DNA of 64,000 nt, from NCBI GenBank assembly GCA_963977015.1, contig CAXBMO010000005.1:292422-356421 (forward strand), given 5' to 3'. Both the position numbers and the translations under genes were made by a program. This document shows, piece after piece, positions 45,483 through 63,825 of the stretch. Each line of letters opens with the position of its first letter. Within the stretch, counting starts at the first letter, position 1. Under the pieces are notes generated by a model that had not been told where the DNA came from, ran no database searches, and saw nothing but the letters and a program-made list of their open reading frames with translations. Origin of the DNA: an uncultured bacterium. GTDB lineage: Bacteria; Verrucomicrobiota; Verrucomicrobiia; Verrucomicrobiales; DEV007.

Positions 45483-45581
45483 GGAAATCGTGAAACTCCG
45501 GAATTAGAGGCGTTGCCATCCTATGGCCGAAAACGCTGGAATCGAAAAGATTTTCAGGCTTCGTTGTTCCACCCTAACTCC

Positions 45582-47795
45582 ATGAGATTTTTCCAAGCCC
45601 TGGTAGCGAGTGGTATCGCCATTTTCGCGTTGCCGTTAAGCGCTCAAGATCCTTCGCCCAGTGCGGACATCGATGCGCTGCAGGCGCTTTGGAAGAATTT
45701 GGAGGAGCAACAAACCCAGGTCTCCAAGCTCCGAAAGCAACTCACGGAAAATCAGGCCAAGGTCGACCGGATGATGACGGACCTGCAATCCGTCGCCATC
45801 GGACTTGAACGCGCCGAGTCCACCTTGGCGGTGCGCGGACAAATCAGTCAACTGGTTCAGAAACAACTGAGCAAAAAGGTCGATGCCTGGAAGCCGGCGT
45901 CAGCAACCTCTCCTCCCCTCAAAAAGCGGATCGAGACCTATCAGCTTCACATCGATCAAGCTGAAAAAACCTACGATCGCTCAACCGAAGTCAAGAGCCT
46001 CGTCGCCACGCAAGCCAAACTGCTGCAAACGCGAAGAGTGATCAATCAAGCGATTCAGCAACCCCTGGAAGCTTTCCGTCAAACACGAGCGGAGCTGGAT
46101 CAAGCCAACCTCACACTGGCGGAACTTCGCCGCGACTTCGCCGTTCTCAAACTGCAAACCGTCGAGCAGGCGGATCAAACCGCGCCCCCGTTCCTGCAAA
46201 AGGTCGAGGTTCTTTCCTCGCGAAAACGCCCCGTCTATCAAGCCGAGTGGAAGGCGGTGGGCGTTCGACGTCAGCCTCAGGTTGAGAGGCTGAATGCCCT
46301 GATTGACGCCCAATTTGAACTCCTGACCGTGCGCGAAACCCAGCTCGCGCGGTGGGCTGAAATCGTGCGAATGCGCAACGCCGAGTGCGAACAATTGATC
46401 GCCGAAAGTGAGGACGCAGTTTGGCGCCAATACTGGCAAATTCCGGTGGCGGAGATGAGCCGAGACTCCCAATCCAGTGCCCTGCCGGATGCGGCCAACC
46501 GGGACGTCTCCACCATTCTTCACGAAACGGGCGACCGCCTTCTTCTCCTCGCGACCGGTCAAGCGGCCTGGAGTTACGAGAATGCGGGTTCACTCGCTTC
46601 CCAGGGATTGCTTCCGCTTCCGACCATGGAACAATTGGCGGCCATGGACTGGAGCGAGACGCTGCAAATGGTCCGCGCGGCAGTGAGAGATGAGCCGACC
46701 CGCCAGATTTACGGTGATTCCGGGTTGGTTGATTTGGCCAATATCTGGACAACGGCCGCCCGGGTTCCCTCGGTTGTCGCAACTCGTTCCTTGATCGAGG
46801 ACGTCATCGGTTTCGATGTCAATGAATCTTGGCTTACCATGGTGAACACCGTCGATCGGCAAATCATTGATGCGGCTCCCAAACGCCTGCCCGACTTTGA
46901 ACTGGCGGACGAAACCCGCCAGGCTTGGAAAGACTTCGCCAAGCTGGATGCCCGCCGCATGGTCGCCCTTGCCCACTTCAAATCGACCGCCGTCCTTCAC
47001 TGGATCGATCGGCATGTGCTCAATCTTCTGCTCGATGAACTGGATCGCGTGACGGACGGAACGCCATCAGAATCACTCGACCGAATTCTGATTCGCGCCA
47101 AGGATGAAGCGTTGCAGCGAAAGCGCGATTACCTCGTCAAACTCCAGTTTTCCCGGCCGGGAGTAGCCGTCGCAAAGGTCACGTTGGGCGGCGTTGAGGT
47201 TGCGGTGGATGAAAGCGAGTTGACCGATTCCCGCAGTCCGAACTGGAATGGCAAGATCCGCTTCGACAACATTCCACCAAACGGCCAGTTGGTCGTCGAA
47301 GTTGAAGATCTGGATGATCCCGTCTCAGCCATTACCCTGGATCCAATGGGGGAAAACTGGCTGGGCTATGAACCCGGGCCGGATCTCAATCACCGATTGC
47401 GGGTCGATCGCAGTCCAGAGCGCAGTTTTGTTCTCGTTCTGAATCCGGGAACGGATCCCGCCCAAACTCAATCCACCGTCGCCGCAATTTTTAACGAGGA
47501 AGAGTTCGGGGCGGGAGACGAAATCGCCCTCTATCTCTCGACCGACTCGGGTATTGTCCGCGCCTCATCCTTCACTCAAAACCACGCTCAGGTTTGGACC
47601 GCGATTGAGGCCGCCACAGCCCAGGAAACCCCGCTGCCTCCGTGGGCCGTCGTCACCGCAGGGCGCTATCTCTATAACCAGGGTCGTGGCGACGAGAAGC
47701 GGCTGATCCTCATCGAAGCTCAACCGGCTGAAAAACTGAACGAAGCGCTGTTGGCCGTGCGCGAAATGCGAACCCTGGCAACCACCAAACCGTGA
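45582..47795 (+). CDS. Secreted coiled-coil protein with C-terminal partial vWA-like region
   Basis: Signal peptide MRFFQ..LPLSA, heptad-rich N-terminal part, alternating beta/alpha C-terminus; the ORF extension to 45132 is antisense to psd. Confidence 0.7.
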   Translation: MRFFQALVASGIAIFALPLSAQDPSPSADIDALQALWKNLEEQQTQVSKLRKQLTENQAKVDRMMTDLQSVAIGLERAESTLAVRGQISQLVQKQLSKKVDAWKPASATSPPLKKRIETYQLHIDQAEKTYDRSTEVKSLVATQAKLLQTRRVINQAIQQPLEAFRQTRAELDQANLTLAELRRDFAVLKLQTVEQADQTAPPFLQKVEVLSSRKRPVYQAEWKAVGVRRQPQVERLNALIDAQFELLTVRETQLARWAEIVRMRNAECEQLIAESEDAVWRQYWQIPVAEMSRDSQSSALPDAANRDVSTILHETGDRLLLLATGQAAWSYENAGSLASQGLLPLPTMEQLAAMDWSETLQMVRAAVRDEPTRQIYGDSGLVDLANIWTTAARVPSVVATRSLIEDVIGFDVNESWLTMVNTVDRQIIDAAPKRLPDFELADETRQAWKDFAKLDARRMVALAHFKSTAVLHWIDRHVLNLLLDELDRVTDGTPSESLDRILIRAKDEALQRKRDYLVKLQFSRPGVAVAKVTLGGVEVAVDESELTDSRSPNWNGKIRFDNIPPNGQLVVEVEDLDDPVSAITLDPMGENWLGYEPGPDLNHRLRVDRSPERSFVLVLNPGTDPAQTQSTVAAIFNEEEFGAGDEIALYLSTDSGIVRASSFTQNHAQVWTAIEAATAQETPLPPWAVVTAGRYLYNQGRGDEKRLILIEAQPAEKLNEALLAVREMRTLATTKP

Positions 47796-49789
47796 CCGCG
47801 CTTTCTCTCCGATTCAGGCTTTGCCACAGGTTTGCCATTCTCGCGTGTTCGCTCGCCACCCTTGGCATTGCGTCCGCTCAACAAAGCTCTCTGCAACTCG
47901 ATTGGGAGTTCGAGATCTCCGACGGGGAGGCAACTCGGGACGTTGAAATCCCGAAAGATGGTCTCATCTGGATTCGCCCACTTCAGGTCCCGGAAGGTTT
48001 GGAGTTCTTCGCAGAAGTCCTCAACGCCGAATCGCGCGACCGGAAGCGGATGGAGTTTCGCGTGCCCAAGGGCACTCACGAACTCAAAATCTGGGAGCGG
48101 TCCGGCGGGGCCACGCCCGGCAAGGCCAAATTCCGTGTCTACTTCGTCGCTGAAACGGACTCCAGCGAACCGGAGAACGACAAAAGCTCCCGTCCTCGCG
48201 AAGTGAGGGTGAGCGACTCAATTCCGGTGCGCCTTTACCCCACTGGCGAGGTCGATTTCCTGCGCGTGAATCCCGGCAAACGCGGCTACATCTCGGTGGA
48301 CGCGCCCAACCCGCCCGAAGGTCTGAGTCTGTGGCCGGAGCTCGCCGACGCATCGGGAAACAGCCTCGGCCTTGGCTCCGGACATACGCCCATTGGCGGC
48401 CCCGTCACGATTCGCGTCGCGGATCGCTGGGGCGCCTACGGATCTCTGGAGCCCTTTCAACTTCGGGTGCGATTCGTGCCGGAAATGGACTTTGCCGAAC
48501 CCAACAACTCGCCTCAGGAAGCCGTCGAAACGCGATTTGGAGCGTGGCACGAGGCTGCAATCATGCCTCAGGGCGACGTCGACTTTTTTCGGATCAAAGC
48601 CAGCGAACCGGGTTACCTGCAAATTCGTGCCTACGACCCTCCGGATTTTAACCTGAAATGGGAGATGTTCGATGCGAACTCGAATCTCAGCATCGCCGAC
48701 GGTTGGATCATGCCAATTCCGGAAGGCGAGTTTTACCTCCGACTCAATGCGGAGGACGAAACCCGGTTCTCCGAAAAGCCATTTCGCTTCCAGATCGTCT
48801 GGCGAGCCACCGAGCGAATTTCTCCCCGGCGCAGCAAGGTTGACGAAGCCACCGAAGTCGCCGCCGGCAAATCCATGCGCGTCCGCATTGCCGCCTCCGG
48901 CGAAGTCGACCACTTGGCCGTGCGGGTCGATCGCCCCTCCATTGTCTGGTTTCACGGCAAGCTCCCTCCAGGTCTCAACGCCCTTTTCCGAACCAAGGGA
49001 GGTCGCGAGGGCAATCCGCTCTGGTTGCGCGACGATCGCGGCCTCATCTCCACCTCGTTCCTGGAGCAGAATAACAAGTATACCGTCGATGCCGCGACCG
49101 TCTGGACCGACGTCGAGCCCGATCTCGATTCCAACGAGCCGAACGATTCCCGCGACGTGCGTAAAACGCTCGAAGTCGGCCGTCCCGAGCCCCTCTACCT
49201 CTATCCCGGCAACGACATCGACTGGTTCGCCTTTCGGGTCCGCAAATCAGGTTCGATCCGCTTTCGCATCCTGTCGCCGGAAGGCCGGCTCGACGATTTC
49301 GAGCAGGGAATCGAATTCGGAGTGACCGATGACAAGGGCCAACCCATTGCCCAGCGCATCGCGGTCAAAACCAGTGGTTACACCTGGGTTGCCGAACCGA
49401 TCGACCTGCCGAAAGGGAAATTCGGAATCTGGCTCAAGGGGCGTTGGGGAGGGTTTTCACCTCACCCGCTGCGCCTTCTCGCCTCCCCTTTCGACGAAGT
49501 GCCCGAATCCGTTCAACAAGTGGGAATCCAGGTTGTCAGCGTCGGCAGCGGTGACGATCTCATGGCCCTGCGCAACATCACCGAAGCCGCCGGAGCCGAA
49601 TTTATCGCCCCCGTGACAACGGACGCCGAACCTCAAGTCATCGCCAGTCTCAACACGAGTTCCGCTCCGCAGAAATCACAATCGCATTGGTGGATTTGGA
49701 TCCTCGTCATTCTCCTGGTCATCTGGCTGTTTCGAAAAATGTCAGGCCCCGGCAAACGACGCCCGAAATTCAGCTCTCTCACCGGTTAG
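47792..49789 (+). CDS. Secreted protein with repeated PPC-like beta domains and C-terminal membrane anchor
   Basis: Signal peptide; repeated DxxEPN(N/D)...G(D/E)VDxF motif; WWIWILVILLVIWLF followed by a basic tail; GTGA overlap with upstream gene. Confidence 0.72.
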   Translation: MTALSLRFRLCHRFAILACSLATLGIASAQQSSLQLDWEFEISDGEATRDVEIPKDGLIWIRPLQVPEGLEFFAEVLNAESRDRKRMEFRVPKGTHELKIWERSGGATPGKAKFRVYFVAETDSSEPENDKSSRPREVRVSDSIPVRLYPTGEVDFLRVNPGKRGYISVDAPNPPEGLSLWPELADASGNSLGLGSGHTPIGGPVTIRVADRWGAYGSLEPFQLRVRFVPEMDFAEPNNSPQEAVETRFGAWHEAAIMPQGDVDFFRIKASEPGYLQIRAYDPPDFNLKWEMFDANSNLSIADGWIMPIPEGEFYLRLNAEDETRFSEKPFRFQIVWRATERISPRRSKVDEATEVAAGKSMRVRIAASGEVDHLAVRVDRPSIVWFHGKLPPGLNALFRTKGGREGNPLWLRDDRGLISTSFLEQNNKYTVDAATVWTDVEPDLDSNEPNDSRDVRKTLEVGRPEPLYLYPGNDIDWFAFRVRKSGSIRFRILSPEGRLDDFEQGIEFGVTDDKGQPIAQRIAVKTSGYTWVAEPIDLPKGKFGIWLKGRWGGFSPHPLRLLASPFDEVPESVQQVGIQVVSVGSGDDLMALRNITEAAGAEFIAPVTTDAEPQVIASLNTSSAPQKSQSHWWIWILVILLVIWLFRKMSGPGKRRPKFSSLTG

Positions 49790-50276: not shown

Positions 50277-51509
50277 CTACCCCAACTCTTCACCGATCCG
50301 GCGACAAACTTCCTCCGCGTTTTCGCGGCTGTTGAACGCGGAAATGCGGAAGTAGCCTTCCCCAGCGGCTCCGAATCCGGCCCCGGGCGTGATGACGACG
50401 TTCACCTTCTCGAGCATGCGATCAAACATGCCCCAGCTATCGACACCTTCCGGGCACTGCACCCAGATATAAGGCGCGTTAACGCCGCCAAAAACCTTGA
50501 GCCCGGCCGCTTCGCAGGCTTCACGCAACAGCTTGGCATTGCCGAGATAGTGTTCGATCAACGCGGAAACCTGTTCCTTGCCTTCGGGGCTGAAAACGGC
50601 GGCGGCACCTTTCTGCACAATGTAGCTGGCGCCATTGAATTTGGTGCTTTGGCGACGATTCCAAAGCGGGTGAATCGCTTGGTCGGTGCCATCAGCCGTC
50701 TTGCCGGTCAATTCCTTTGGAACCACGGTGTAGGCGCAGCGAACGCCGGTGAAACCACCGTTTTTGGAGAAGCTCCGGAACTCGATCGCGCAATCGCGGG
50801 CGCCCTCAATCTCATAAATGGAGCGCGGCACGTCCGGATCAGTCACAAAGGCCTCGTAAGCGGCGTCGTAGAAAAGAATCGCATCATTCTTCTTCGCATA
50901 ATCCACCCAGGCCTTGAGCTGCTCTTTGGTCGCGGTTGCTCCCGTCGGATTGTTCGGGTAGCAAAGGTAAACGAGATCGACTTTCTCCTCGGGAATGGCG
51001 GGAACGAAGTCGTTCTCGGCGGTGCACGGCATGTAAACCAGCCCCTCATAACTTCCGGATTCATCGGCATCGCCCGTATTGCCAACCATCACATTGGTAT
51101 CGACGTAAACCGGATACACGGGATCGGTGATCGCAATGGTGTTTCCCGGTCCAAAAATGTCCAGGATGTTGCCGGAATCGCACTTCGAACCATCGGAGAC
51201 AAAGATCTCGTCGGCACTCACATTCAACCCCGCATAGGCATTGTCGGCAATCGCTTCGCGCAGGAACGCGTAGCCCTGCTCCGGACCATACCCCTTGAAG
51301 GTGTCGCGATTTCCCTGCTCATCGACCGCCTCGTGCATCGCCTTGCGGCAGGCCTCGGGCAATGGCTCCGTCACGTCACCAATGCCGCAACGAATCAACT
51401 TCTTCGCAGCCTCAGGATTGGCTTCGGTGAAGGCGTTGACCCGGCGGGCGATTTCGGGGAAAAGGTAACCGGCTTTGAGCTTGAGGTAATTGTCGTTAAT
51501 TCTGGCCAT
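50277..51509 (-). CDS. dapL: LL-diaminopimelate aminotransferase
   Basis: [58 protein letters not shown]. Confidence 0.95.
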
Positions 51510-51694
51510 GATGTTGCCGCAGACAAAGCGCGTTTGCTTCGCGATGTCAAGAAAACGGGCATTCAGTCGCGAAAGCCGGGGATTGGGAGAAAGTTCGACG
51601 ACGTGTCTACAAATTCGGAAAACGCGGCGCCTTAAAGGAAGGAAAGCGACCCGCTTTTCCCATTCCGTTCTTCTTCCCTCCGAACTTCCCGACC

Positions 51695-52123
51695 ATGCCT
51701 CCTTCCCCGCACTCTCACTCTGATCCCAAACACGATCCCAAGCGAACGCGAGCGCACCCACCAAAGTCAACGCAGTCACCGGGCTTCCGCGCGAATGTCT
51801 ACTTTGACTTCACCAACCGCAAAGCGTCCTCGCGGCAACCGTTTACGGAATACTATTCGCTGAACTGGGATGAGACGAACCAGAAGTGGTCATTGTGGGC
51901 CGAGGTCGAGCTTTGGGAACCTGTCACCAAGAACGCAAATCGAAAAGGCGGTCGCACCGAAGTTCCCGACGTTTTTCAGTTGCTGAGTGCAGTTTGGAAG
52001 GAGCGCGCCGAGGCCGCTCATTTGCGGCTTGATCGCTTTGAGACCAGTGAGGATTTCCCCATCGACCCCAGCCTGGAAGCAAAGCTGGATTCGCTCGAAG
52101 ACGAGATGCCGAATCCACGCTAA
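51695..52123 (+). CDS. Hypothetical protein
   Basis: 142-aa ORF fills the gap between dapL and the sigma gene; Trp-rich core; start uncertain. Confidence 0.5.
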
Positions 52124-52281: not shown

Positions 52282-54327
52282 ATGGACCCAAAGCTCCCCA
52301 CTCTGGACGACTACCTCGAAGAATATGGCACAATGCTATGGAACTACTGTCTCGCAGAGACTTCGCATCGCCAAGATGCGGAAGACTTGATGCAGATGGT
52401 TCTTCTTCGTCTCCGCCGCAGCATCGAACGCGCCGAAAAAGAACCCATCACTTCTCCGCGAGCGCTGGTTTTGTCGATGCTGCGCTACGCGATTCTGGAT
52501 TTTCGACGCAAGGCGATCCGCTCTCGAATCCTGGAGCAAATCATCGCCGAGGAATTGCTTGGGCAGGGAGGCGTGTTGGACCTCGTTGCCGAATATCACT
52601 CGCAGTTAAATCTGCGAGTGTCTTCGGAATTTGAAGCGGCTCGCGCGTTGATCGCGAAACTGCGGAAAGGGAGAAATGTTGCCGGTTTAAGTGAGCGCCA
52701 ACACCAGGTCGTCTGGGGGTGTATTCTGCAGGAGCGGACTCAGGAAGACGTGGCCAACGAATTGGGGATCGCGAGAGGAACGGTCGCCATTACCCTGGCA
52801 AGGGCAAAAACAAAGCTCCAAGCCTGGTTGGAGGAGAAGATCCGAAATCTGAATGATGAGGATGATTCAAGGGACGACGAGGGGGGGGACGACTGGTTCT
52901 TCAACCATGGTGACGGCGACCTTCCGTTGTCGCCGACGGATCCGTTCCAATCCGGTCCCCAGGGACTCGCCCTTCCCGAAGACAGTTCCGAGTCCGGTGC
53001 CTTGTCCGCCGCGGAAGAAGCTCTCTACGCCGATCTGGCCGAGAAAGATCGCCCGGACCAAACGGATCAATCCAGCTTCCTTGATGAACTTCTCCACTTC
53101 TGGCTCCCGTTCGAAACGCTGGCCCTGCAGCACAGCCCATCACTGAGATTGGCGCCACGTCAGGCAGATCGTGTTCTTCGGCTCGTGTTCGAACACGCAC
53201 TGGAAGACTGGAGAGACGAGATTCCAGCCAGCAAGGAAAATTGGATCGTCGCGTCGCTTCGTGAAGCCAGAGTTTTGATCTGGATAAGGGAAAAAGGATC
53301 GAACCTGTCCAATCCTGAACCAGCCCATCTTGGAAGTTCTTGCGCGAGATTTTCCGGAGGTCCCCGTGTTTCGGTCTTTGTCAGTTATTGCCGCGCTGAT
53401 CGAGAATTGAAGCGGATCAGACAATTGGTCGAGGATATTTCGAATCAATTTGCACGAATAAAATGGAGAGAAGAGAGAATTCTCGAATCCAAAAGGGTCC
53501 GGTGGTATACGCGAACGGTTAGCCCTGACTCAGGATCCTACGCTCGCATTTTGGATCAATCTTCCTATGCCTGCATGTCCAGATTACGAAGGCTATCAAG
53601 AGAGTCTATACGACACGTTCAGGAACCTATCCTTCCAGTTTATCCCTCGTTGTTCTTTCCACTAACTTCTCATCATCATTTCCTCGAACGAAACCGGATT
53701 GTCATCGAGCATCCCCAATTCTGGGACGAGTCGCGGCGATCGTTGAATCGATGTTGCTTCCTTATTCTCATCGTGAGTCGCCAATCCATTCCCGGCTACA
53801 TTGACAGCAGCGAGCTGTCAGCCTGTTCCCCGTTCCCAATAATCTGGAACGTGGTTTCCCCCATCGAATCTGAGAACCTTGATTGGGTTCTCCCTAAGGC
53901 CATTCCGCAATCGGAATCCTTGACCCTTCATCCAAACCCACAAAACCCAACTCCCCGCCTAAACGGCCTCTCCCCCTCCATTCGAGTCACTGCCCACGAA
54001 CCTGGTTACTGGTTCACCCATCCCGAAAGAGATCACGCCATGAACCGTAAGCAATGCCTCGAACTCAGTCTGAAATATCTTCAAGCGCGAGCGGACCGAT
54101 TTGAGATCGAACAACTGGAAGACGGCGTCACGGAATGCCCGGAAATCGCGGAATGGTTCCGCTTCACCTGCCGCCACTTCTACGCGCAGGAAATGATCAA
54201 TTCGTGTGGGAAAGACCAGCCTCACGCCCTCCCATCACTCTGGCCGGAAGGACTTGAGTTCGACTCGACAGAACCGGACCTGATGCTTCCCGAAAACTCA
54301 GACGAGCCCTTCGATGATGACTTCTAG
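52282..54327 (+). CDS. ECF sigma-70 factor with long C-terminal extension containing a TIR-like domain
   Basis: Region 2 (DAEDLMQMV), region 4 (LSERQ..TQEDVANELGI.RGTV...LARA); later VFVSYCRAD and FLILIVS..SI. Confidence 0.72.
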   Translation: MDPKLPTLDDYLEEYGTMLWNYCLAETSHRQDAEDLMQMVLLRLRRSIERAEKEPITSPRALVLSMLRYAILDFRRKAIRSRILEQIIAEELLGQGGVLDLVAEYHSQLNLRVSSEFEAARALIAKLRKGRNVAGLSERQHQVVWGCILQERTQEDVANELGIARGTVAITLARAKTKLQAWLEEKIRNLNDEDDSRDDEGGDDWFFNHGDGDLPLSPTDPFQSGPQGLALPEDSSESGALSAAEEALYADLAEKDRPDQTDQSSFLDELLHFWLPFETLALQHSPSLRLAPRQADRVLRLVFEHALEDWRDEIPASKENWIVASLREARVLIWIREKGSNLSNPEPAHLGSSCARFSGGPRVSVFVSYCRADRELKRIRQLVEDISNQFARIKWREERILESKRVRWYTRTVSPDSGSYARILDQSSYACMSRLRRLSRESIRHVQEPILPVYPSLFFPLTSHHHFLERNRIVIEHPQFWDESRRSLNRCCFLILIVSRQSIPGYIDSSELSACSPFPIIWNVVSPIESENLDWVLPKAIPQSESLTLHPNPQNPTPRLNGLSPSIRVTAHEPGYWFTHPERDHAMNRKQCLELSLKYLQARADRFEIEQLEDGVTECPEIAEWFRFTCRHFYAQEMINSCGKDQPHALPSLWPEGLEFDSTEPDLMLPENSDEPFDDDF

Positions 54328-54539: not shown

Positions 54540-55718
54540 TCACGGTGCCTTCTTCGCCTTGGACTGGGCGGAAATGTAGGTCTTCACGACCGGGGCCGGA
54601 ATCGTATACAGGCACGATTTCTCAATCCCACGATTCACAATCGTTTCCATGAGATGCGTCTGAAGAAGTTTTGCCTTCTCAAGAGGAAGGATCATGGCCA
54701 GGTTTCCGATCTCTCGGTTGATTCGGAGCCCGCCCGTTGTCTGCTTCGCTTCAGCTTCCGCGAATCGCCAATTGCTGACGCTGGCCCCGGGCGTTCCAAA
54801 CTGCAGCGCGGCCTGAAGCAACTCATCGGTGTCCTTGCGCCGGCAGTTCACGTTGAGAACCACGCGATCGTTGACCACTCCCCGCGAGTTTTGCCGAAAC
54901 TCACTCGCGTTCGGATCATGAATCAAGAGCTGGTTGGCGCGCCAATCGGTGCCGCCATTCATTTCGTCAATGGCGCGGACGATTTGCTGGATGCTTGCCG
55001 AATGCTTCTGGGCATGAAAGACGCTCGCAAGATTGGTGAGCCCTTTTGAGATCGGGATCTGATAAATGATTCCCCTTCCGGGCTGATCAACCCGGCCCTC
55101 TTCCGCCATCGCTTGAAAAACCGCATCGACATCGCACCGGTCGACCACGGCCGTGACGAGCTCCTTGTCATGCGTCTTCGTAATCCGCAGCAACCCCAGC
55201 CGATCGCGAAGACCATAACCACGAACATAGGAAATCGTGGGCCCGGGCGCTCCCGCCTTGATCGCCGCCCGCGCCACGCCATCCGCACTGTCCTTCTCCG
55301 TAATCAGGACCAGAGCGACGAGCTCCTTGCGAAACTTGATATCGAACGAGACGGACTCGAACGTGTATTTCCCCGGTTCCCAACGGGGATAATCCTCGGC
55401 ACAGACCAGCTCCTCGCACGGCGTCGCAAAAATCGATCCCGCGCCATAGAGTTGCAGTTTCCCAACCATCACGATCTCTTCCATCAACGTATCCGCCTCC
55501 GCATTGGGAACCAGAAAAGTGATGATCTCCTGCTCGGGCGACAACGCGGGAAGAAAGGATTGATACCAGCGCTCGTTCATCAAACTCCCTCGCGCGCTCG
55601 TCGTCAGCGCATAGTGGGCGCCCGAAGCCAAAACCGCCTCCAGCACCTGATGCGTGCTGTGGCGGGGCAAAATCGCCGTTACCAGCGAGTAATCCGAATG
55701 GCGACTAAACGGCTCCAT
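54540..55718 (-). CDS. Protein with three tandem P-II-like domains
   Basis: Three ~95-aa units with P-II-type pattern (RG motif, E.I..V, GxGxI(F/Y)xxP). Confidence 0.75.
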   Translation of the reverse strand: MEPFSRHSDYSLVTAILPRHSTHQVLEAVLASGAHYALTTSARGSLMNERWYQSFLPALSPEQEIITFLVPNAEADTLMEEIVMVGKLQLYGAGSIFATPCEELVCAEDYPRWEPGKYTFESVSFDIKFRKELVALVLITEKDSADGVARAAIKAGAPGPTISYVRGYGLRDRLGLLRITKTHDKELVTAVVDRCDVDAVFQAMAEEGRVDQPGRGIIYQIPISKGLTNLASVFHAQKHSASIQQIVRAIDEMNGGTDWRANQLLIHDPNASEFRQNSRGVVNDRVVLNVNCRRKDTDELLQAALQFGTPGASVSNWRFAEAEAKQTTGGLRINREIGNLAMILPLEKAKLLQTHLMETIVNRGIEKSCLYTIPAPVVKTYISAQSKAKKAP

Positions 55719-57645
55719 CGATTGCAGGCACGGTTTCTTGTTTACTCGTTCGATTCACAATCAATCCAACTGTCAGCACCGTAATCACCGGACCAACCGA
55801 TGCCAGGGCCAGAATTCCAAACCCATTGGTCACGCCCGGGATGTTCGCACCAATTCCCAATCCCATCGCCAGGACCAGGGGAACGGTGATCGGCCCGGTG
55901 GTCACCCCGGCACTATCCCACCCGAAATTGACGAATTCCTCGGAAGAAATGATGGTGAGAAAGACGAGCAACAGATAGGGAGGAATCAACAGCATGGTGA
56001 GTTCAATCGCGGGAAACGCCATCTGGGTAACTCCGGCCGCAATCCCGAGGCCAACGCCAATCGCGACCGTTTGCATCAATACCTTTTTCTTGAACACCCC
56101 GACGGTCGTCGTCTCAACCGTCTGTCCGAGAGCATTCAACGCCGGTTCGGCGAGCGTGGCTCCATATCCCAAAAAGTACGCAAACAGGATCGCGATGACC
56201 TTGCCCGTCATCGCATTTTCATAAATGGCAGGAACGGAGCCCTCCATGCCCCATGGTTTGATGGAGGCAAAGGTTGAAGGGATGTTGCTTCCCAACTGGG
56301 TTCCCAACGGGGTCAGCCCCAGTGTCAGCCCCAATCCGAACAGCCCCATTCCAACCACGGCAAAAAGAACGCCGATCGCGATTTCATCCGCCCGGCGCAA
56401 GCGCTCGCGCAAAACGACCAGCAAGGTCAAAAACAGAAACAGACAGAGAGGCAGAATCGCCTGGGCCGCCATCACGGAAGAAATTCGAAGCTCTCGAAAA
56501 AGCTTGAGTTGGTGATCCCAGGGCTGCTGAGTCTGCTCGACAATGAACGTTTCCAGCAGGTTTTTGGAGTCCTTCTTTTCCAACAGGATTTCGGCTCCGC
56601 GATGCACAATGCGTCCATCTTCCAGGGTGACCGTTCCTCCACGATAAACCGTCCGATACTCGCTCTCCGCACCGTCCAGTTCTCCGGATTCCAAGTATTC
56701 CTGAAACTCTTCTTCCGTAAATTGAGGCATTTCCTTTGCCTTCGTTGGAGTCGCTTCGGACTTTTCGTCCAGCTCAGGATTCACAACTGCAACGATCAAC
56801 TCCTTCTTGTAGTTTGCCGCGCCGTAATAGTCTTCTGCAGTATAGTGATAGAACGACAACGACAAGACCGCGATCACCGGGAACAGCGAGGCGAGTGTCA
56901 CAATACCAAACCCCGCGCCACGATCATCATCATCGCCAATGATCCGACAAACCCCGATTCCCAGCGCCAGCACCAAGGGAACCGTCACTGGGCCCGTTGT
57001 CACAGCCCCGCAATCCCAGGCCAGGCCGATGATCGGTCTTAGCAACGGGGTATAATAGGCCACCAGGGTCAACGTCGACAGGATCAGAACGATCGGGATA
57101 ATCAGAAGCTTGAGCGACCAACCGAAGAAGAAGCGGAGAATGCCCAACATCACCGCCAAGCCAACCCCGATCCCGACGCACATCACCAGTTGGGTCGAAA
57201 AGTCATTCAACAGGCTGTAGAGAAGCGGCGCATCGCTCGGCATCACTCCACTTCCAGCCTTCTTGAGCACAGAAATCGCGGGCTCCGCGAACGTCGCCCC
57301 CACCCCCAACACAAACGAAAAGCCCATAATCATCGGGAGCTTGGAGTTGCGTGGCAGGATCGCCCCGATGGTCTCCCCAAATGGCATCAGCCCCAACCGC
57401 AACCCTTCCATGAAGAACGTCAGCCCGATCACGACGATTGCGATCCCAAGAGTGATCGTGGCACCATAAACCACCGGCAAATCCAGAAACAGAATCTGAA
57501 ACACCACCAAATAGGCGATGATGAACCAAATGCTTTTGACCTGCTCAAGCGCCTTGTCCTTGAAATACCGCCACACAATCGACACCACCCCGCCCAACCC
57601 AAGTTGGGCAATCGCGCTCTGTTTGTGGGGCGGAGATTCCGGCAT
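55705..57645 (-). CDS. DUF1538 membrane protein (two fused repeats)
   Basis: Twice: GAT.AEPA, WD...VTTGP.TVPLVLA.G.G, GFGI..LAS..PV. Confidence 0.88.
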   Translation of the reverse strand: MPESPPHKQSAIAQLGLGGVVSIVWRYFKDKALEQVKSIWFIIAYLVVFQILFLDLPVVYGATITLGIAIVVIGLTFFMEGLRLGLMPFGETIGAILPRNSKLPMIMGFSFVLGVGATFAEPAISVLKKAGSGVMPSDAPLLYSLLNDFSTQLVMCVGIGVGLAVMLGILRFFFGWSLKLLIIPIVLILSTLTLVAYYTPLLRPIIGLAWDCGAVTTGPVTVPLVLALGIGVCRIIGDDDDRGAGFGIVTLASLFPVIAVLSLSFYHYTAEDYYGAANYKKELIVAVVNPELDEKSEATPTKAKEMPQFTEEEFQEYLESGELDGAESEYRTVYRGGTVTLEDGRIVHRGAEILLEKKDSKNLLETFIVEQTQQPWDHQLKLFRELRISSVMAAQAILPLCLFLFLTLLVVLRERLRRADEIAIGVLFAVVGMGLFGLGLTLGLTPLGTQLGSNIPSTFASIKPWGMEGSVPAIYENAMTGKVIAILFAYFLGYGATLAEPALNALGQTVETTTVGVFKKKVLMQTVAIGVGLGIAAGVTQMAFPAIELTMLLIPPYLLLVFLTIISSEEFVNFGWDSAGVTTGPITVPLVLAMGLGIGANIPGVTNGFGILALASVGPVITVLTVGLIVNRTSKQETVPAIDGAV

Positions 57646-58129
57646 CGGCGCGAACCAAAGCTAGATCCGTGCCATCAGTGGCGCTTGCTGCCCCAAATGA
57701 TCGCAACGTTGCCGAAATTTCCCCTGAGGATTCCGATCTCGACATTGCAGAAAGGGAGCCTGCGGTTGCGATCACTAGTCATTCACGCAATCTGGATCAG
57801 GCTGCGTTCGGCATGACGAACGGAGGGCACAGCTATGGAGGTAAACTTTTCTTCTCAATTCCCTTTCCCAAATAATGGTTCGAACCCGACTCGGCTGACA
57901 GAAGTGTCTCATTTTGCTCAAACCGTCAACCTAACTTGATCACCTGTGATACCAAAAAATTCCCTCATTAGGTATTCGATCCGGTTTTCGAAGGATGAAT
58001 CCGGCACAAGTTTCACCTGCGCAAAAAGGCATGAAAAGAAACACGGAATGTTTGTCCGAGGAACACCTCCCTTTGGAAAGGTAAGGAAATTCCTGAGAAT
58101 TCCAATCAATGCGCTCCCCTTGGCCCAAC

Positions 58130-59227
58130 ATGTTGCCTTACCTCCCTCCTCATCTGCGATTACCGATCGTTTTCGTGCTTTTGGTCGCGAATTCAGGATG
58201 CACGAAGAGCGACGAGGCCGCGAAAGAGGCTTCAACCCAATCGCCTCCTGCGAAAGTCGAAACCACGAAGGTGGTGGATCGCTGGTTTGCGGATGAGTTT
58301 GAAGCTCTCGGAACCGTGCGGGCTCTGGAGGCAATTGACCTGTCTTCCAACGTTACTGAACGGGTCGCTTCCATCCATTTCGAAGATGGTGATGCCGTCG
58401 AGAAAGGTAAGCTCCTGGTGCAGTTGGAGAATTCGGAGGAAATGGCGATCCTCCGAGGCGCTGAAGCGCAGGAGGCTGAGCAAGAGCGGGAAATCAAGCG
58501 TTTGGAAGGCCTCGTTCAGGGCGGGGCGGTCTCCGAGGTGAGGCTGGAGGAACACCTGACGAGACGGGACATCGCCCGGCAGGCGGTTGAGGAAGCAAGA
58601 GCGCAGATTCAAGACCGCCAGATCAAGGCGCCCTTTGATGGAGTGTTGGGATTTCGCCGCGTCAGTGCCGGAGCCCTCGTCGAGCCCGGTGATTTGATTG
58701 CGACGCTCGATATTCTCGATCCCGTGAAGCTGGACTTTACCGTGCCGGAGACGTTTTTGAGCGACTTGAAGTCGGGGCTCGAACTCCAGGCGGAAACGGA
58801 GGCGTTTCCGGGTGAACTGTTTTCTGGAAAAGTAACCCAGATTGATACGCGGGTGAATCCGGTAACGCGCTCGGCCACCGTTCGCGCCGAAGTTCCCAAT
58901 CCAAACAACCGGCTGCGTCCAGGCATGTTAATGACGACGACGCTGGTGAAGCGCCGCAAACAATCGCTCAGCGTGCCGGAACGCTCCCTGGTCTCGGTCC
59001 TTTCCGATCATTTTGTGTTTGTGCTAAACGGAGAAGAGACGGTAAAGCGCGTTAAAATCACGATCGGAAGGCGGGTCCCCGGTTTTGTGGAAGTACTCGC
59101 GGGACTGACGAAGGGCGACACCATTGTGACCGATGGGTTGATCGGCCTGGTGGATGGACGCTCCGTCGAAATCACCGGAACTTTTGATGGTCCCTCTGAA
59201 CCCTATCAACCCTCGAGCTCCCTTTAA
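58130..59227 (+). CDS. RND efflux periplasmic adaptor (MFP)
   Basis: Lipobox-like NSGC, V.KG.LL, IKAPFDG, LRPGM. Confidence 0.92.
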   Translation: MLPYLPPHLRLPIVFVLLVANSGCTKSDEAAKEASTQSPPAKVETTKVVDRWFADEFEALGTVRALEAIDLSSNVTERVASIHFEDGDAVEKGKLLVQLENSEEMAILRGAEAQEAEQEREIKRLEGLVQGGAVSEVRLEEHLTRRDIARQAVEEARAQIQDRQIKAPFDGVLGFRRVSAGALVEPGDLIATLDILDPVKLDFTVPETFLSDLKSGLELQAETEAFPGELFSGKVTQIDTRVNPVTRSATVRAEVPNPNNRLRPGMLMTTTLVKRRKQSLSVPERSLVSVLSDHFVFVLNGEETVKRVKITIGRRVPGFVEVLAGLTKGDTIVTDGLIGLVDGRSVEITGTFDGPSEPYQPSSSL

Positions 59228-59257
59228 TCACCCGGTTTAGCTGCCACGCCCGCACTC

Positions 59258-62200
59258 ATGGTTCTTTCGGATGTTTCCATACGTCGCCCAGTTCTCGCGA
59301 CGGTCCTGAATCTGCTACTGGTCACCTTTGGGATCGTATCGTTCACGCAACTCCAGGTTCGCGAGTTTCCAGATATCGACCCTCCGATCGTGACGATCGA
59401 AACCTCCTACACGGGCGCCTCCGCACCCGTGGTGGAGCGGAGGATCACCCAGTTGATCGAGGATCGAATCAGTATCGTTGAAGCGATCAAGTCGATTGAG
59501 TCTTCAAGCGAAGACGGGCGTTCGATCGTCACGGTGGAGTTCAACATCGAGCGGGATATCGACAATGCGGCGAACGATCTCCGGGAAGCGGTCTCAGGCC
59601 TGCTCGACGAACTGCCGGAAGAAGCCGATCCGCCGGAAATCACGAAGGAAGACGCCGCCACGGAGGTCATGATGTGGCTGAGCCTCACCAGCGAGGTGAT
59701 GTCGCCGGTGGAACTGGCCGATTACGGGGAGCGTTACCTCGTGGATAGTTTTTCCGTGCTCCCCGGTGTGGCGCGAGTGCGCATTTCCGGAGCGTCGAGC
59801 TATGCGATGCGGGTGTGGGTGGACCGAAGAGCGTTGGCTGCCCGAAACCTCACCGTGACCGATGTGGAGAATGCGCTCCAACGCCAGAACATCGAACTTC
59901 CGGCGGGCACCATTCAATCGCTCGACCGTCAATTCACGGTTCGGATCAAACGCGAGTTTTTGTCGGAGGAAGATTTCCGCAACCTGGTGGTTTTTCGCGG
60001 TGAGGACGGCTTCCTGGTTCGCTTGGGCGAAGTCGCTCGCATCGAATTGGGCGCGGAGGAATCGCGGCGCATGTTTCGCGGCAACGGAGCGCCCCGAGTC
60101 GGTTTGGGCATCATCAAGCAAAGCCAGGCCAATACCCTCGACGTCTCCCGCGCAGCGAAGAAGGAGATGGAACGGGTTCGTGCGCAGCTGCCGGACGGAA
60201 TGGACCTTCTGCCCAGCTACGACACCTCCGTTTTCATCGAGGAATCGCTGAAACAGGTCGGCATGACCCTGTTCGTGGCGGTGTTGCTGGTTGTGGCCGT
60301 GATTTACCTGTTCTTGGGCAACGTTCGCGCCATGCTGATCCCGGCGGTTACCGTTCCGGTCTCGCTCATCAGCACGTTCATCGTGATCAACATGTTGGGA
60401 TTTTCTGTGAACCTCCTGACGCTCCTCGCGTTGATCCTCGCGATCGGCTTGGTGGTGGATGATGCGATCGTCGTGCTGGAGAACGTCTATCACCGCATTG
60501 AGCTCGGCGAGCATCCCCTGGCCGCCGCGTTTCGCGGAACCCGGCAAGTCGCCTTCGCGGTCATCGCCACCACCCTGGTGTTGGTGGCGGTGTTCGTCCC
60601 GATCTCGTTTCTGGAAGGAGACATCGGCAAGTTGTTTACGGAGTTCGCCATCACGCTCGCCGTTGCCGTGTGTTTTTCCAGTCTCGTGGCGCTGACGTTG
60701 TCTCCCATGATTGCGTCGAAAGTGCTGAAAGCGGAAACGGCACGGGGCAACTGGCTGACTCGATTCGTGGACTGGTTATTCCGTGGGTTTGAATCCGTGT
60801 ATCGCCGCATTCTGGGCGCGATGCTGAAAATCCCCATCCTTGCCATCGTCATTGTCGGGGGATTCTTTGCCGCGGCCTGGTTCCTCTACAAAACGCTGCC
60901 CCAGGAGTTCACCCCAAAGGAAGATCGCGGCGTTTTCTTTGTCGTCACCTCGGCTCCGGAAGGAACCAGCTACGGTTCGATCATTGAAACAATGGACGAA
61001 GTGGAGGAGCAACTGATGTATCTGAACGAGGAAACCAAGGAAGCTTCCTGGGTTCTGGTGCGAGCACCACGTGGATTTGGCAACATCGCAGATTTCAACC
61101 AAGGCGTCACCATCGTGGTCCTTTCGGATTGGGCGGAGCGACGATCCGGCTGGGAAATCATGGATGAAGTCCGGGGACGACTCGGCGGGATTCCCGGCGT
61201 GAAGAATTTCCTGGTGATGCGGCAGGGCCTGACCCGCGGTCTCCAAAAGCCCGTTCAATTCGTGATCGGTGGTCCGGAGTATGGATTGATTGCCGAATGG
61301 CGCGACGCGCTCCTCGCAGAGATCAAAAAGAATCCCAAAATCATCGGCGTCGACTACGACTACAAGGAAACGAAGCCGCAACTGCGGGTGAACATCAATC
61401 GCAACCGCGCCGGCGATCTCGGCGTCTCGATTCAAAACATCGGCCGCACCCTGGAAAGCCTGTTGGGGTCACGCTCCGTCACCACGTTTATCGAACGCGG
61501 GGAAGAGTACGACGTGATCGTGGAAAGTGATTATGATCGAAAACGCACGCCAGCGGACCTTACCAATATTTACGTCAGGTCCGAGCAGACCGGAGAATTG
61601 GTCCCGCTTTCGAATCTGGTGACGATTGAAGAGGTGGCCGACTCCGGCGCGTTGAACCGCTACAACCGCATTCGCGCGATCACGATTGAAGCGAGCCTTG
61701 CCGAAGGCTACCGGCTCAGTGAAGCCCTGGACTTCTTTGACGAAGCAGCGGCTCGCGTCATCCCGAAAGAGGCGATCATCAGTTACAAGGGCGAGTCGCT
61801 AAACTACAAGGAGTCCGGAAGTTCCGCGATTTTCGTGTTCGTTCTCGCCCTGCTGGTCGTGTTTCTCGTCCTCGCCGCCCAATTCGAAAGTTTTGTCCAG
61901 CCGGTGACGATCATGCTCGCGGTGCCCGTGGCCGTCGTCGGTGGCTTGTTCGGACTTTGGGTCACCGGCTTGGCCCAAAACATTTACACACAAATCGGCA
62001 CCATCATGCTGATTGGTTTGGCGGCGAAGAACGGAATCCTGATTGTGGAGTTCATCAATCAACTCCGCGATGAAGGATTGAAGTTCAACCAGGCCGTTCT
62101 CGATGGTTCGGTCAGGCGTTTGCGCCCGATCGTGATGACCGGACTGACCACGTTGATGGGCTCGGTGCCGCTCGTCATCACTTCCGGAGCAGGAGCGGAA

Positions 62201-62374
62201 ACCCGCGTGGTGATTGGGGTTGTGATTCTTTTTGGAGTTGCATTTGCCGCAGTTTTCACCTTGGTCGTGGTGCCGCTCGGCTATCAACTGATTGCCCGCC
62301 GAACGAAAAGCCCGGAAGAGCACATTCGAAAGCTGAATGCCGCCTTGGCAGAGCCCGAGCCTGAGTCCAAGTGA
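59258..62374 (+). CDS. RND efflux permease (AcrB/MdtC-like)
   Basis: IRRPV, AIGLVVDDAIVVLEN, GLAAKNGILIVEF, RLRPIVMT. Confidence 0.95.
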   Translation: MVLSDVSIRRPVLATVLNLLLVTFGIVSFTQLQVREFPDIDPPIVTIETSYTGASAPVVERRITQLIEDRISIVEAIKSIESSSEDGRSIVTVEFNIERDIDNAANDLREAVSGLLDELPEEADPPEITKEDAATEVMMWLSLTSEVMSPVELADYGERYLVDSFSVLPGVARVRISGASSYAMRVWVDRRALAARNLTVTDVENALQRQNIELPAGTIQSLDRQFTVRIKREFLSEEDFRNLVVFRGEDGFLVRLGEVARIELGAEESRRMFRGNGAPRVGLGIIKQSQANTLDVSRAAKKEMERVRAQLPDGMDLLPSYDTSVFIEESLKQVGMTLFVAVLLVVAVIYLFLGNVRAMLIPAVTVPVSLISTFIVINMLGFSVNLLTLLALILAIGLVVDDAIVVLENVYHRIELGEHPLAAAFRGTRQVAFAVIATTLVLVAVFVPISFLEGDIGKLFTEFAITLAVAVCFSSLVALTLSPMIASKVLKAETARGNWLTRFVDWLFRGFESVYRRILGAMLKIPILAIVIVGGFFAAAWFLYKTLPQEFTPKEDRGVFFVVTSAPEGTSYGSIIETMDEVEEQLMYLNEETKEASWVLVRAPRGFGNIADFNQGVTIVVLSDWAERRSGWEIMDEVRGRLGGIPGVKNFLVMRQGLTRGLQKPVQFVIGGPEYGLIAEWRDALLAEIKKNPKIIGVDYDYKETKPQLRVNINRNRAGDLGVSIQNIGRTLESLLGSRSVTTFIERGEEYDVIVESDYDRKRTPADLTNIYVRSEQTGELVPLSNLVTIEEVADSGALNRYNRIRAITIEASLAEGYRLSEALDFFDEAAARVIPKEAIISYKGESLNYKESGSSAIFVFVLALLVVFLVLAAQFESFVQPVTIMLAVPVAVVGGLFGLWVTGLAQNIYTQIGTIMLIGLAAKNGILIVEFINQLRDEGLKFNQAVLDGSVRRLRPIVMTGLTTLMGSVPLVITSGAGAETRVVIGVVILFGVAFAAVFTLVVVPLGYQLIARRTKSPEEHIRKLNAALAEPEPESK

Positions 62375-63825
62375 ACATTTTTTCCCTGACAGATTTCAAG
62401 TCGTCCCCCCTTCGCCACCTCACCGTTTTCTCAACGGTGGGGTTCGTGTTGTTGGGGCTGGTTGGTTGTACGGTAGGCCCTGACTACCGTCGTCCGCTCG
62501 TCAATGGCCAGTTGCCAACAGCCTTTGATGCGCCACCTGGCTGGAAGCTTGCCACGCCCGCCGACAAAGAGAAACTCGCCACATGGTGGGACTGCTTTGG
62601 CGACAAGCGTCTCGATGATCTCATGAAGCGTGTGGAGGCGGAAAATCAGGAAATGATCGCCGCACTGCATCGAGTGGAGCAGGCCCGCGCCATCTCCCAA
62701 GCCGCCAATTCCGCCGCGTTTCCCGGCATCAGTTTCGATCCTTCCGCAACCCGCGGCCGACGCTCCGGCACGGTCAGCGACACCTCGAGCAATTTGACGG
62801 GCCGGACGACCACCAATCTGACGCTCCCGCTGAATCTGGGTTACGAAATCGACTTTTGGGGCAAGATCCGCCGCGGAACCGAGGCCGCCAAGGCGGAAAC
62901 TGAGGCTGACGAAGCGCTTCGTCGCCAGTTGCAACTAACCCTGCAAAGTGAACTCGCCGTTCAATATTTTGGCATGCGTTCCCTCGATGCAGAGATCGAG
63001 CTCTTTGAGGCCGAGGTGGAGTTGCGCCGGAAAGCGCTCGAGTTGAACCAAAAACGCTTCGAAGCCGGCGACACCGACGAGGTCGATGTCTCTCGCGCCG
63101 AAACGGAGATGTCTGCCACGGAAACCGAGTTGATCGGGCTTCGCCAAAATCGTTCGGAATTCGAAAACGCCATCGCGGTTCTGATCGGGAAACCTTCTTC
63201 CGGCTTTCGAATTGCGCCATCTCCGCTCGGTTTCGCCCCTCCACGCATCCCAGTTTCGGTTCCCTCCGAGCTCTTGGAACGACGCCCTGACATCGCCGCG
63301 GCCGAGCGAATCATGATCGCGGAAAACGCGCGAATCGGTGTCGCCAAAGCCGCGTTTTTCCCTTCGGTAAGCTTTAATGGAAGCATTGGGCTGGAGAGCG
63401 GCAGCACCTCGCAACTGTTCGATTACGCGAGCCGGACTTGGGGACTGGGGCCCGAAATCAGTTTCCCCGTCTTCGAAGGAGGCCTGAACAAGGCAGAGCT
63501 GGCGCGCAGTGAGGCGCGCTACGACGAAACGGTCGCGAATTACCGGCAGACGATCCTTCAGGCCGTGCGCGAAGTCGATGATGCACTCGTCGCTGTCGAT
63601 CGCTTGTCGCAACGGTTCGCCTCACAGCAACGCACCGTCTCCGCCGCCGCTCGAACCGTCGAACTGTCGCAGCAACGCTACGATGCCGGGGTTGTGGCCT
63701 ATTTTGAGGTGGTGGATGCCCAGCGCACCGAACTCTCCGCGCGCCAAGCCGCGGTTCGCCTGCGCGCCGCCCAATATCTCGCTTCGATCGCGCTGGTGAA
63801 AGCGCTGGGCGGCGGTTGGGAGTAG
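62371..63825 (+). CDS. Outer-membrane efflux lipoprotein (NodT/OprM family)
   Basis: LVGCTVGPDY, YEIDFWG, SELLERRPDI..AE, KALGGGW. Confidence 0.94.
   Translation: MNIFSLTDFKSSPLRHLTVFSTVGFVLLGLVGCTVGPDYRRPLVNGQLPTAFDAPPGWKLATPADKEKLATWWDCFGDKRLDDLMKRVEAENQEMIAALHRVEQARAISQAANSAAFPGISFDPSATRGRRSGTVSDTSSNLTGRTTTNLTLPLNLGYEIDFWGKIRRGTEAAKAETEADEALRRQLQLTLQSELAVQYFGMRSLDAEIELFEAEVELRRKALELNQKRFEAGDTDEVDVSRAETEMSATETELIGLRQNRSEFENAIAVLIGKPSSGFRIAPSPLGFAPPRIPVSVPSELLERRPDIAAAERIMIAENARIGVAKAAFFPSVSFNGSIGLESGSTSQLFDYASRTWGLGPEISFPVFEGGLNKAELARSEARYDETVANYRQTILQAVREVDDALVAVDRLSQRFASQQRTVSAAARTVELSQQRYDAGVVAYFEVVDAQRTELSARQAAVRLRAAQYLASIALVKALGGGWE

Follow-up and report, generated by a model that had tools for sequence, protein, structure and literature searches.

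In a 64,000-nucleotide window of DNA from an uncultured verrucomicrobial bacterium (GTDB lineage DEV007; assembly GCA_963977015.1, contig CAXBMO010000005.1, forward-strand positions 292,422 to 356,421), two overlapping minus-strand genes encode a fused double-DUF1538 membrane protein of 646 amino acids (aa; window positions 55705..57645) and a single-chain triple P-II-like protein of 392 aa (54540..55718). By textbook accounts, P-II proteins are homotrimers in which all three sites are equal and whose three-fold symmetry matches that of trimeric targets. Here, three homologous P-II-fold units are present in one chain, and different halves of the P-II binding cleft are kept in different units. 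The start codon of the P-II-like gene lies inside the upstream gene, with an overlap of 14 nt, and the pair is probably a translationally coupled two-gene module of a secondary transporter and a dedicated P-II-like regulator. From the sequences we favour, with a probability of about 0.58, a reading in which an asymmetric, one-site P-II-like regulator would be docked on an antiparallel 7+7-helix cation/proton transporter.

An earlier sequence-only reading had divided the 392-aa open reading frame (ORF) into three P-II-like units with a helical linker before the third, overlapping by 14 nt an upstream protein with two DUF1538 repeats and a hydrophilic insert of ~120 aa between them; all of these features are borne out. 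Pfam gives the 392-aa protein a P-II match of 44.8 bits (cut-off 25) in two stretches only, the best at aa 136–225, and no NCBIfam model matches it. When profiles of the single units, cut from a 61-sequence alignment, were compared pairwise with hhalign, units 1 and 2 and units 2 and 3 were each matched at 99.2% probability and units 1 and 3 at 97.7%, with 94–100 columns aligned. An AlphaFold2 model from 112 sequences (predicted local distance difference test score, pLDDT, 82.5; predicted template modelling score, pTM, 0.81) contains three ferredoxin-like beta-alpha-beta-beta-alpha-beta units. The P-II fold extends to unit 3 (~280–382), the unit on which the sequence-only reading could have failed, and in VIA structural comparisons this unit matched SbtB (6mm2; Z 6.2, root-mean-square deviation (rmsd) 3.0, 92 aligned), the DUF3240 protein 3ce8 (Z 6.1, rmsd 2.4, 89 aligned), CPII (5d4l; Z 5.5, rmsd 2.7, 89 aligned) and PEPE_1480, within a Z range of 5.4–6.2; unit 2 aligns with P-II and CutA. 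These Z values are below 8 and therefore count as support only jointly with the hhalign unit profiles. The VIA scores alone are middling because the top two rows for the whole model are resistance-nodulation-division (RND) efflux pumps (Z 7.1–7.2), repeated ferredoxin-like folds being common to both. Foldseek matched canonical P-II chains to the model over about 90–110 columns, and no single solved chain spanning all three units was returned by the Foldseek or VIA searches. The best PDB sequence match is GlnK1 (E 0.0012), and a distant-clade member that was examined has no Pfam match at E 0.01. The linker (aa 239–261; 54936..55004) is helical in the model at 243–253 and 259–262, and its D251, W259 and R260 are found in 100% of the 246 proteins in which residues were scored, 158 from a near clade and 88 from a distant clade.

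The effector site of P-II proteins is built by two subunits, with positions 38, 39, 58 and 87–90 contributed by one and 29, 64, 101 and 103 by its neighbour, and T29, K58, G87 and G89 are nucleotide contacts (available parts of PMC8395244 and PMC7919409). In canonical numbering, with unit registers taken from the hhalign profile alignments and percentages given as near/distant clade, unit 2 (aa 133–230; 55029..55322) is the most conserved, with G35 in 100/100%, G37 in 100/97%, K58 in 94/100%, G87 in 98/96% and G89 in 100/100%; its residues G167, G169, R171, K185, E186, G214 and G216 stand at canonical 35, 37, 39, 58, 59, 87 and 89. Position 39 of this unit is Arg in 98–100%, position 90 is occupied by a bulky residue (F, L or I), and the T-loop is hydrophobic and well conserved. 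At its other face, the near clade has G27 (95%) and T29 (74%) and the distant clade V27 (86%) and P28 (100%). Unit 3 (aa 281–382; 54573..54878) keeps G308, G311, S/T313 and T380 (canonical 24, 27, 29 and 101), with G27 in 89/98%, S/T29 in 87/98% and Thr at 101, and has lost the equivalents of G35, G37 and G87; two alignments disagree on its G89 in the distant clade, where position 58 is R in 75%. Unit 1 (aa 10–107; 55398..55691) keeps R43 and the B-loop glycines G92 and G94 (G87 in 92/94%, G89 in 100/100%) and has lost the equivalents of G27, T29 and G37. K58 occurs in unit 2 only and G87 together with G89 in units 1 and 2 only. The canonical B-loop TGxxGDGKI and the C-loop Arg101/Arg103 are not matched in any unit, and the canonical 2-oxoglutarate-sensing pair of Gln39 and Lys58 does not occur. 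One cyclic order joins the full unit-2 face, which carries the phosphate-side residues, to the full unit-3 face with the adenine-side residues, the sole ones that unit 3 retains; the same order pairs two dead faces, the first face of unit 3 and the second face of unit 1.

Mean-field co-variation was calculated from 428 sequences (effective number, Neff, 276, below the 355 columns), with relatedness handled by weighting only. The pair D76–K225 ranked 1, D211–G311 ranked 6, D184–T380 ranked 7 and A205–K379 ranked 12, in support of this cyclic order. The first of these corresponds to canonical 71–98, which we take to be an inter-subunit salt bridge, and combines an acid with a base (DK, EK, DR or ER) in 227 of the 428 rows, counted among the ten commonest combinations. 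With narrow, literature-based residue sets, the unit-2 top face against the unit-3 bottom face gave p 0.005 and was the sole pairing of six below 0.05; with wide sets, 1-on-2 gave p 0.0024 and 2-on-3 p 0.0002, and the four other pairings were not significant. The top–top and bottom–bottom controls had no p <0.05 in 12 rows, and the 3/1 faces gave no signal (p 0.13–0.26). The top partners of the linker helix were P160 of unit 2 and S95/I96 of unit 1, a hint that the helix may lie over the 1/2 cleft, and only a hint because it also co-varies with unit 3 and with other unit-2 positions. Taken together, conservation and co-variation point to an intact 2/3 cleft, a partial 1/2 cleft and a dead 3/1 cleft. 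The asymmetry between the units that the sequence-only reading had described is thus seen unit by unit in the 246 proteins, whereas its three non-equivalent ligand sites give way to one intact, one partial and one degenerate cleft, and three working ligand sites are unlikely.

The conserved linkage with DUF1538, also expected by that reading, holds throughout a wide survey. The arrangement is no chance event: a word search found 215 homologues among 7999 scored candidates, and a profile search of 50% representatives gave 1330 matches at E 0.001 and 213 at 1e-30, with lengths mostly of 360–410 aa among the 150 profile matches listed. GTDB genomes contained 191 relatives among 541 pattern matches, and 79 loci were taken, from Verrucomicrobiota, Pirellulaceae and many Gammaproteobacteria; cultured bacteria with the genes include Cerasicoccus species and Sinimarinibacterium flocculans. 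DUF1538 lies immediately 5' of the triple P-II gene in 78 of the 79, the sole miss being at a contig end; both halves are in one ORF in 75 of these 78, and the other 3 are cut by a contig end. For the distant clade, 80 loci were taken from 250 metagenome relatives (commonest ESM Atlas label Spirochaetota; also loci of the phylum Verrucomicrobiota), and DUF1538 is upstream in 70 (49 whole, 19 cut, 2 broken or split). The remaining ten have <300 bases of upstream contig, as do all 11 misses overall. Seen from the transporter side, DUF1538 was matched in 19 further Verrucomicrobiota genomes, of which 16 have a P-II neighbour and 3 were not assessable; 11 of these neighbours are triple (one cut by a contig end), 2 are double, 1 consists of two single genes and 2 are single. 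DUF1538 was found in 59 of 201 sampled Gammaproteobacteria genomes, and among 30 gammaproteobacterial DUF1538 loci 26 have split halves followed by a single P-II gene and 4 end at a contig edge. Two clostridial plasmid records carry a fused 500-aa DUF1538 protein followed by a 222-aa double P-II protein, and a 712-aa ESM Atlas cluster of 98 members, most commonly Bacillota, has DUF1538 in 98% and P-II in 86%, in one chain. The pair is patchy, matched in 5 of 24 same-family and 0 of 16 other same-order genomes; the host genome (6.9 Mb, 95% complete) has one copy, and a canonical P-II gene occurs once, separately, on a different contig. The pair has no conserved third gene, since no family recurred in over 10 of the 79 loci (40 largest clusters listed; shadow frames over the pair excluded), and no conserved nitrogen or carbon gene is found in these neighbour clusters. 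Promoter and terminator scans gave chance-level results (1 versus 1.5; 5 versus 5.0). The DUF1538 genes of a few loci appear frameshifted or broken (L258 (G266:C44), L147, L152 and L046).

The 646-aa protein is a distant relative of UmpA and UmpB. Pfam finds two DUF1538 (PF07556) stretches in it (353.6 bits, cut-off 22.6), and it scores 210.9 against the NCBIfam UmpA model (cut-off 490) and 157.8 against UmpB (cut-off 500). Its 14 hydrophobic peaks correspond to paired, fused halves of seven membrane helices, and its predicted model from 141 sequences has a pLDDT of 87.1 and a pTM of 0.86. Half 1 (aa about 30–270; 56836..57558) is predicted to be N-in/C-out and has invariant T118, A120, E121, P122, R171, D211, T217 and S253; half 2 (aa about 382–634; 55744..56502) is predicted to be N-out/C-in, with invariant A499, E500, P501 and D577. 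Counts of lysine plus arginine favour N-in for half 1 of the fused family (11.1 versus 4.6), and the bias is opposite in the two kinds of split relative (9.9 versus 4.0 in 26 first genes, 4.8 versus 11.5 in 26 second genes), so that the two halves are probably in opposite orientation. The insert between them (aa about 271–381; 56503..56835), a soluble segment of about 110–120 aa with a small beta-sheet in the model, would therefore be on the outer (periplasmic) side and would not be the P-II docking site, and the C-terminus would be inside, in agreement with the expectation that a fused P-II domain would be C-terminal. The T-x-A-E-P of each half contains an invariant Glu and the D-x-G-x-V-T-T an invariant Asp; these acids (E121/E500 and D211/D577) are present in all of 141 fused proteins, as they are in all 26 split proteins of either kind. 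The transporter has no PDB sequence match at E 1, and its model has no Foldseek match at E 0.001 and no VIA match at Z >=8 among 48161 chains (best Z 6.3), searches in which a long helical model can miss matches; these negatives do not establish a new fold. The Na+/Ca2+ exchanger 3v5s, at VIA rank 14 (Z 5.0; 156 positions aligned across the two halves, rmsd 5.3), is tied with unrelated helical bundles and is a lead only. In the distant clade the transporter is about 700 aa (L113:2866-4992 and other loci), with an extra ~55-aa insert inside half 2, and its stretch between the DUF1538 halves has no match to the near-clade insert profile.

The sequence-only reading had called the transporter uncharacterised and its substrate unknown; this no longer holds for the family, in which UmpAB is the sole functionally studied DUF1538 member found in the literature searched. 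UmpAB is a heterodimer that rescues antiporter-less Escherichia coli and has been reported to carry out Na+, K+ and Li+/H+ antiport with K0.5 values of 0.26–0.46 mM (available part of PMC5484666), and UmpAB homologues have been reported in marine or brackish cable bacteria (available part of PMC10030654).

Hence, we hypothesize that the 392-aa chain would very probably fold into a cyclic pseudo-trimer: unit 1 would contact unit 2 by setting its B-loop/T-loop-base face against the beta2/C-arm face of that unit, and the contacts of unit 2 with unit 3 and of unit 3 with unit 1 would be of the same kind. From the residues kept, probably only the 2/3 cleft would bind a small effector, most likely an adenine nucleotide and not 2-oxoglutarate or cyclic di-AMP (c-di-AMP), with the 1/2 cleft partial or linker-covered and the 3/1 cleft dead. 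The replacement of Q39 and the absence of K90 and of the C-loop arginines make 2-oxoglutarate an unlikely ligand. c-di-AMP was rejected as a general ligand: the corresponding motif is absent, and a diadenylate cyclase (DAC) domain is absent in 3 of 3 gammaproteobacterial carriers searched. The host genome has two DAC matches, and a planctomycete also has the domain; the rejection does not extend to the host genome. By analogy with SbtB and GlnK, for which a valve-plug model has been proposed (available part of bioRxiv 10.1101/2023.08.10.552651), the triple P-II protein, as a monomeric pseudo-trimer, would quite probably dock on the cytoplasmic face of the transporter, presumably by way of the T-loops of units 2 and 1, which are hydrophobic and conserved; the effector would move the unit-2 T-loop so that the path is opened or plugged. 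By fusion of its units, an asymmetric regulator would be fixed on a target whose chain lacks a three-fold axis. The odds are about even that this target, like UmpAB, is an antiporter of monovalent cations and H+ whose ion site is formed by the T-x-A-E-P and D-x-G-x-V-T-T motifs of each half, because the halves are 28–33% identical to their split relatives. A bolder proposal, tentative and on balance doubtful, is that the pair represents a third class of P-II-gated transporter, an adenine-nucleotide-controlled monovalent-cation/H+ antiporter of possibly unsolved fold, on whose antiparallel two-half chain a one-chain P-II protein with one effector cleft, a second covered by the linker and a third lost would dock 1:1; the family would then contain a living series that has the one-gene homotrimer at one end, the single chain at the other and the two-gene and two-domain forms in between.

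Several observations weigh against the one-site regulator. The equivalents of canonical K90, R101, R103, R38 and Q39 are absent in all units, unit 2 included, and even the 'intact' cleft may not bind a nucleotide. The wide residue sets were picked after the co-variation list had been seen, and the 1/2 pairing has p 0.19 with the narrow sets; co-variation is underpowered, with Neff smaller than the number of columns, and many implausible pairs are in its top list. The lysine-plus-arginine bias of fused half 2 is weak (N-out, 7.3 versus 9.2), and the halves, at 28–33% identity to split UmpA/UmpB-like proteins, have TTGP where these have TTST. Two membrane genes alone gave UmpAB antiport in E. 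coli (available part of PMC5484666), and therefore no P-II protein is needed for transport there.

It is quite conceivable, though short of probable, that the module is a regulator and a transporter as proposed and that its substrate is another one (e.g. ammonium, bicarbonate or a divalent cation), the activity of UmpAB not being transferable to this clade. The low identity, the TTGP/TTST change and the scores below the equivalog cut-offs would agree with this, the UmpAB evidence found comes from one heterologous study, and ammonium and bicarbonate are the substrates of the two transporters that have been studied as P-II targets (available part of bioRxiv 10.1101/2023.08.10.552651). Set against it are the membrane acids E121/E500 and D211/D577, invariant in fused and split proteins alike, the UmpAB homologues reported in marine or brackish cable bacteria (available part of PMC10030654) and the lack of a conserved nitrogen or carbon gene nearby. 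An unlikely alternative is that the triple P-II protein is a ligand-blind, constitutive accessory subunit, such as a scaffold or assembly factor, whose conserved unit-2 face binds protein and not an effector. The loss of the K90, R101, R103, R38 and Q39 equivalents from all units, the bulky residue at position 90 of unit 2 and its hydrophobic, well-conserved T-loop are what such a subunit might show. However, the residues kept are the backbone-type phosphate glycines 35, 37, 87 and 89, K58, the Arg at 39 and the partner-face G27 and S/T29, of which T29, G87, G89 and K58 are nucleotide contacts (available parts of PMC7919409 and PMC8395244), and UmpAB functions without a subunit of this kind (available part of PMC5484666).

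A single effector site is also preferred over an arrangement, which we consider very unlikely, in which all three clefts bind effectors with differing specificity or affinity and integrate three signals. Unit 1 does have both B-loop glycines and R43, G27 (95%) and T29 (74%) of near-clade unit 2 mean that the 1/2 cleft may still work there, and distant-clade unit 3 has R at 58 in 75%. However, both faces of the 3/1 cleft are degenerate and show no co-variation signal (p 0.13–0.26), unit 1 lacks G37, and distant-clade unit 2 has V27 (86%) and P28 (100%). Least probable of all is the assembly of three chains into stacked conventional rings, each unit forming its own homotrimer: P-II folds are homotrimeric as a rule (available part of PMC4316997) and double-domain relatives are incapable of an intrachain trimer, but the monomer model has a pTM of 0.81, a ring of unit 3 would lack the B-loop face and one of unit 1 the adenine face, and the complementary loss of cleft faces and the top co-variation across different units fit mixed interfaces.

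Each of the three units has one ancient origin. In a 116-domain tree, units 1, 2 and 3 fall into three separate groups of 26 rows, one per unit (Shimodaira–Hasegawa-like approximate likelihood ratio test, SH-aLRT, 98, 97 and 98), and each group splits into the identical two subclades; this is a quick tree only, in which the deep order is not resolved and the triple units of metagenome contig L132 are mislabelled as singles in the group table. The pattern fits one old triplication. Units 1 and 2 score best against the single 'type A' P-II protein found after a 590-aa fused DUF1538 protein, and unit 3 scores about equally against type A and the second domains of double P-II proteins. A frozen A2B heterotrimer derived from the two-gene systems, with unit 1 stemming from a divergent gene B, is not supported: with three sequences of each type compared, the score of unit 1 is 90 for type A and 49 for type B. 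An A-like gene that was triplicated is the better fit. At three loci (L241, L242 and L243, in regions of G363, G364 and G337), a 590-aa fused DUF1538 protein close to the 646-aa protein is followed by two separate P-II genes, one unit-2-like and the other divergent with G27/T29 lost, whose products possibly form a heterotrimer. Contig L132 carries both forms, split DUF1538 with single P-II (L132:205-2128) and then fused DUF1538 with triple P-II (L132:2878-6125), and because they sit side by side there the two forms seem not to be redundant. No triple P-II protein fused to a longer protein was found among 8000 candidates of 687–2000 aa, which is weak evidence.

The transporter resembles UmpAB of Halomonas zhaodongensis (NCBIfam NF041627 and NF041628) in its two homologous seven-helix DUF1538 halves, and T-x-A-E-P and D-x-G-x-V-T-T are common to the 646-aa protein and the split gammaproteobacterial pairs; UmpAB itself was compared through the NCBIfam models only, the identities given being those to split pairs. 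Unlike UmpAB, the halves are fused through the insert, a triple P-II gene comes next and the scores are below the equivalog cut-offs. SbtB and GlnK assemble from three identical chains, have three equal sites and act on transporters that are themselves homotrimers. As in SbtA–SbtB and AmtB–GlnK, the gene for a P-II-fold protein stands beside that for a membrane transporter; in contrast to them, the P-II trimer here would consist of a single chain whose clefts are unequal, and two repeated halves make up the transporter chain. With canonical P-II (GlnB/GlnK, PF00543), a homotrimer of single domains of about 112 aa, the 392-aa protein with its three units shares the fold, G35, G37, K58, G87 and G89 in unit 2 and G27 and S/T29 in unit 3, whereas its T-loop is shorter and without the Tyr51 motif, and Q39, R38, K90, R101 and R103 are missing. 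The c-di-AMP-binding PstA/DarA shares a P-II-like fold (3m05; VIA Z 5.4, rmsd 2.5, 88 aligned), and its TKLxxxGGFLxxGNTT (GGFL) motif (available part of PMC4316997) is absent from the sequence and consensus of all three units. The DUF1538-linked single and double P-II proteins, which are known by database annotation only, have the identical gene order, and differ in having one or two domains per chain or two genes, after transporters that are split or about 500–590 aa long.

The pair is real, conserved and widespread, and apparently it has not been described before. Databases label many members 'P-II family nitrogen regulator'; the triple P-II protein is not a canonical P-II and the 646-aa protein is not an UmpAB equivalog. 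No description of a tandem, single-chain or triple P-II was found in the literature searched, outside which most subscription papers fall, so that the pairing may be in print. The main text of PMC5484666 does not contain 'P-II', 'PII' or 'nitrogen regul', and the available parts of PMC5484666, PMC10030654 and PMC13255231 make no mention of a P-II partner of DUF1538/UmpAB. New here are the unit-by-unit assignment of the clefts and its test by co-variation. A natural single-chain P-II with unequal clefts allows sites and T-loops to be changed one at a time and the role of each to be asked. If the favoured reading is true, P-II signalling would be tied to ion and pH balance, and no such P-II target turned up in the literature searched; the pair would also offer a way to study DUF1538, a family of transporters that is common.

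The genes flanking the pair look like local neighbours. Divergent from it is an RND efflux operon of membrane-fusion protein, AcrB-type pump and outer-membrane factor (58109-63825, plus strand), which is not among the recurring neighbour clusters of the 79 loci. Convergent with it is a gene for an extracytoplasmic function (ECF)-type sigma factor (52282-54327, plus strand) with regions 2 and 4 in aa 13–180 and a C-terminal extension of about 500 aa without a Pfam match. Further away, 50277-51779 (minus strand) encodes a class I/II aminotransferase by Pfam, presumably an LL-diaminopimelate aminotransferase. Two overlapping large ORFs of 887 and 665 aa (45132-49789, plus strand) have no Pfam match at E 0.01, and the 665-aa product begins with a signal-peptide-like segment, contains repeated EPND/EPNN-type motifs and has a membrane anchor at its C-terminus.

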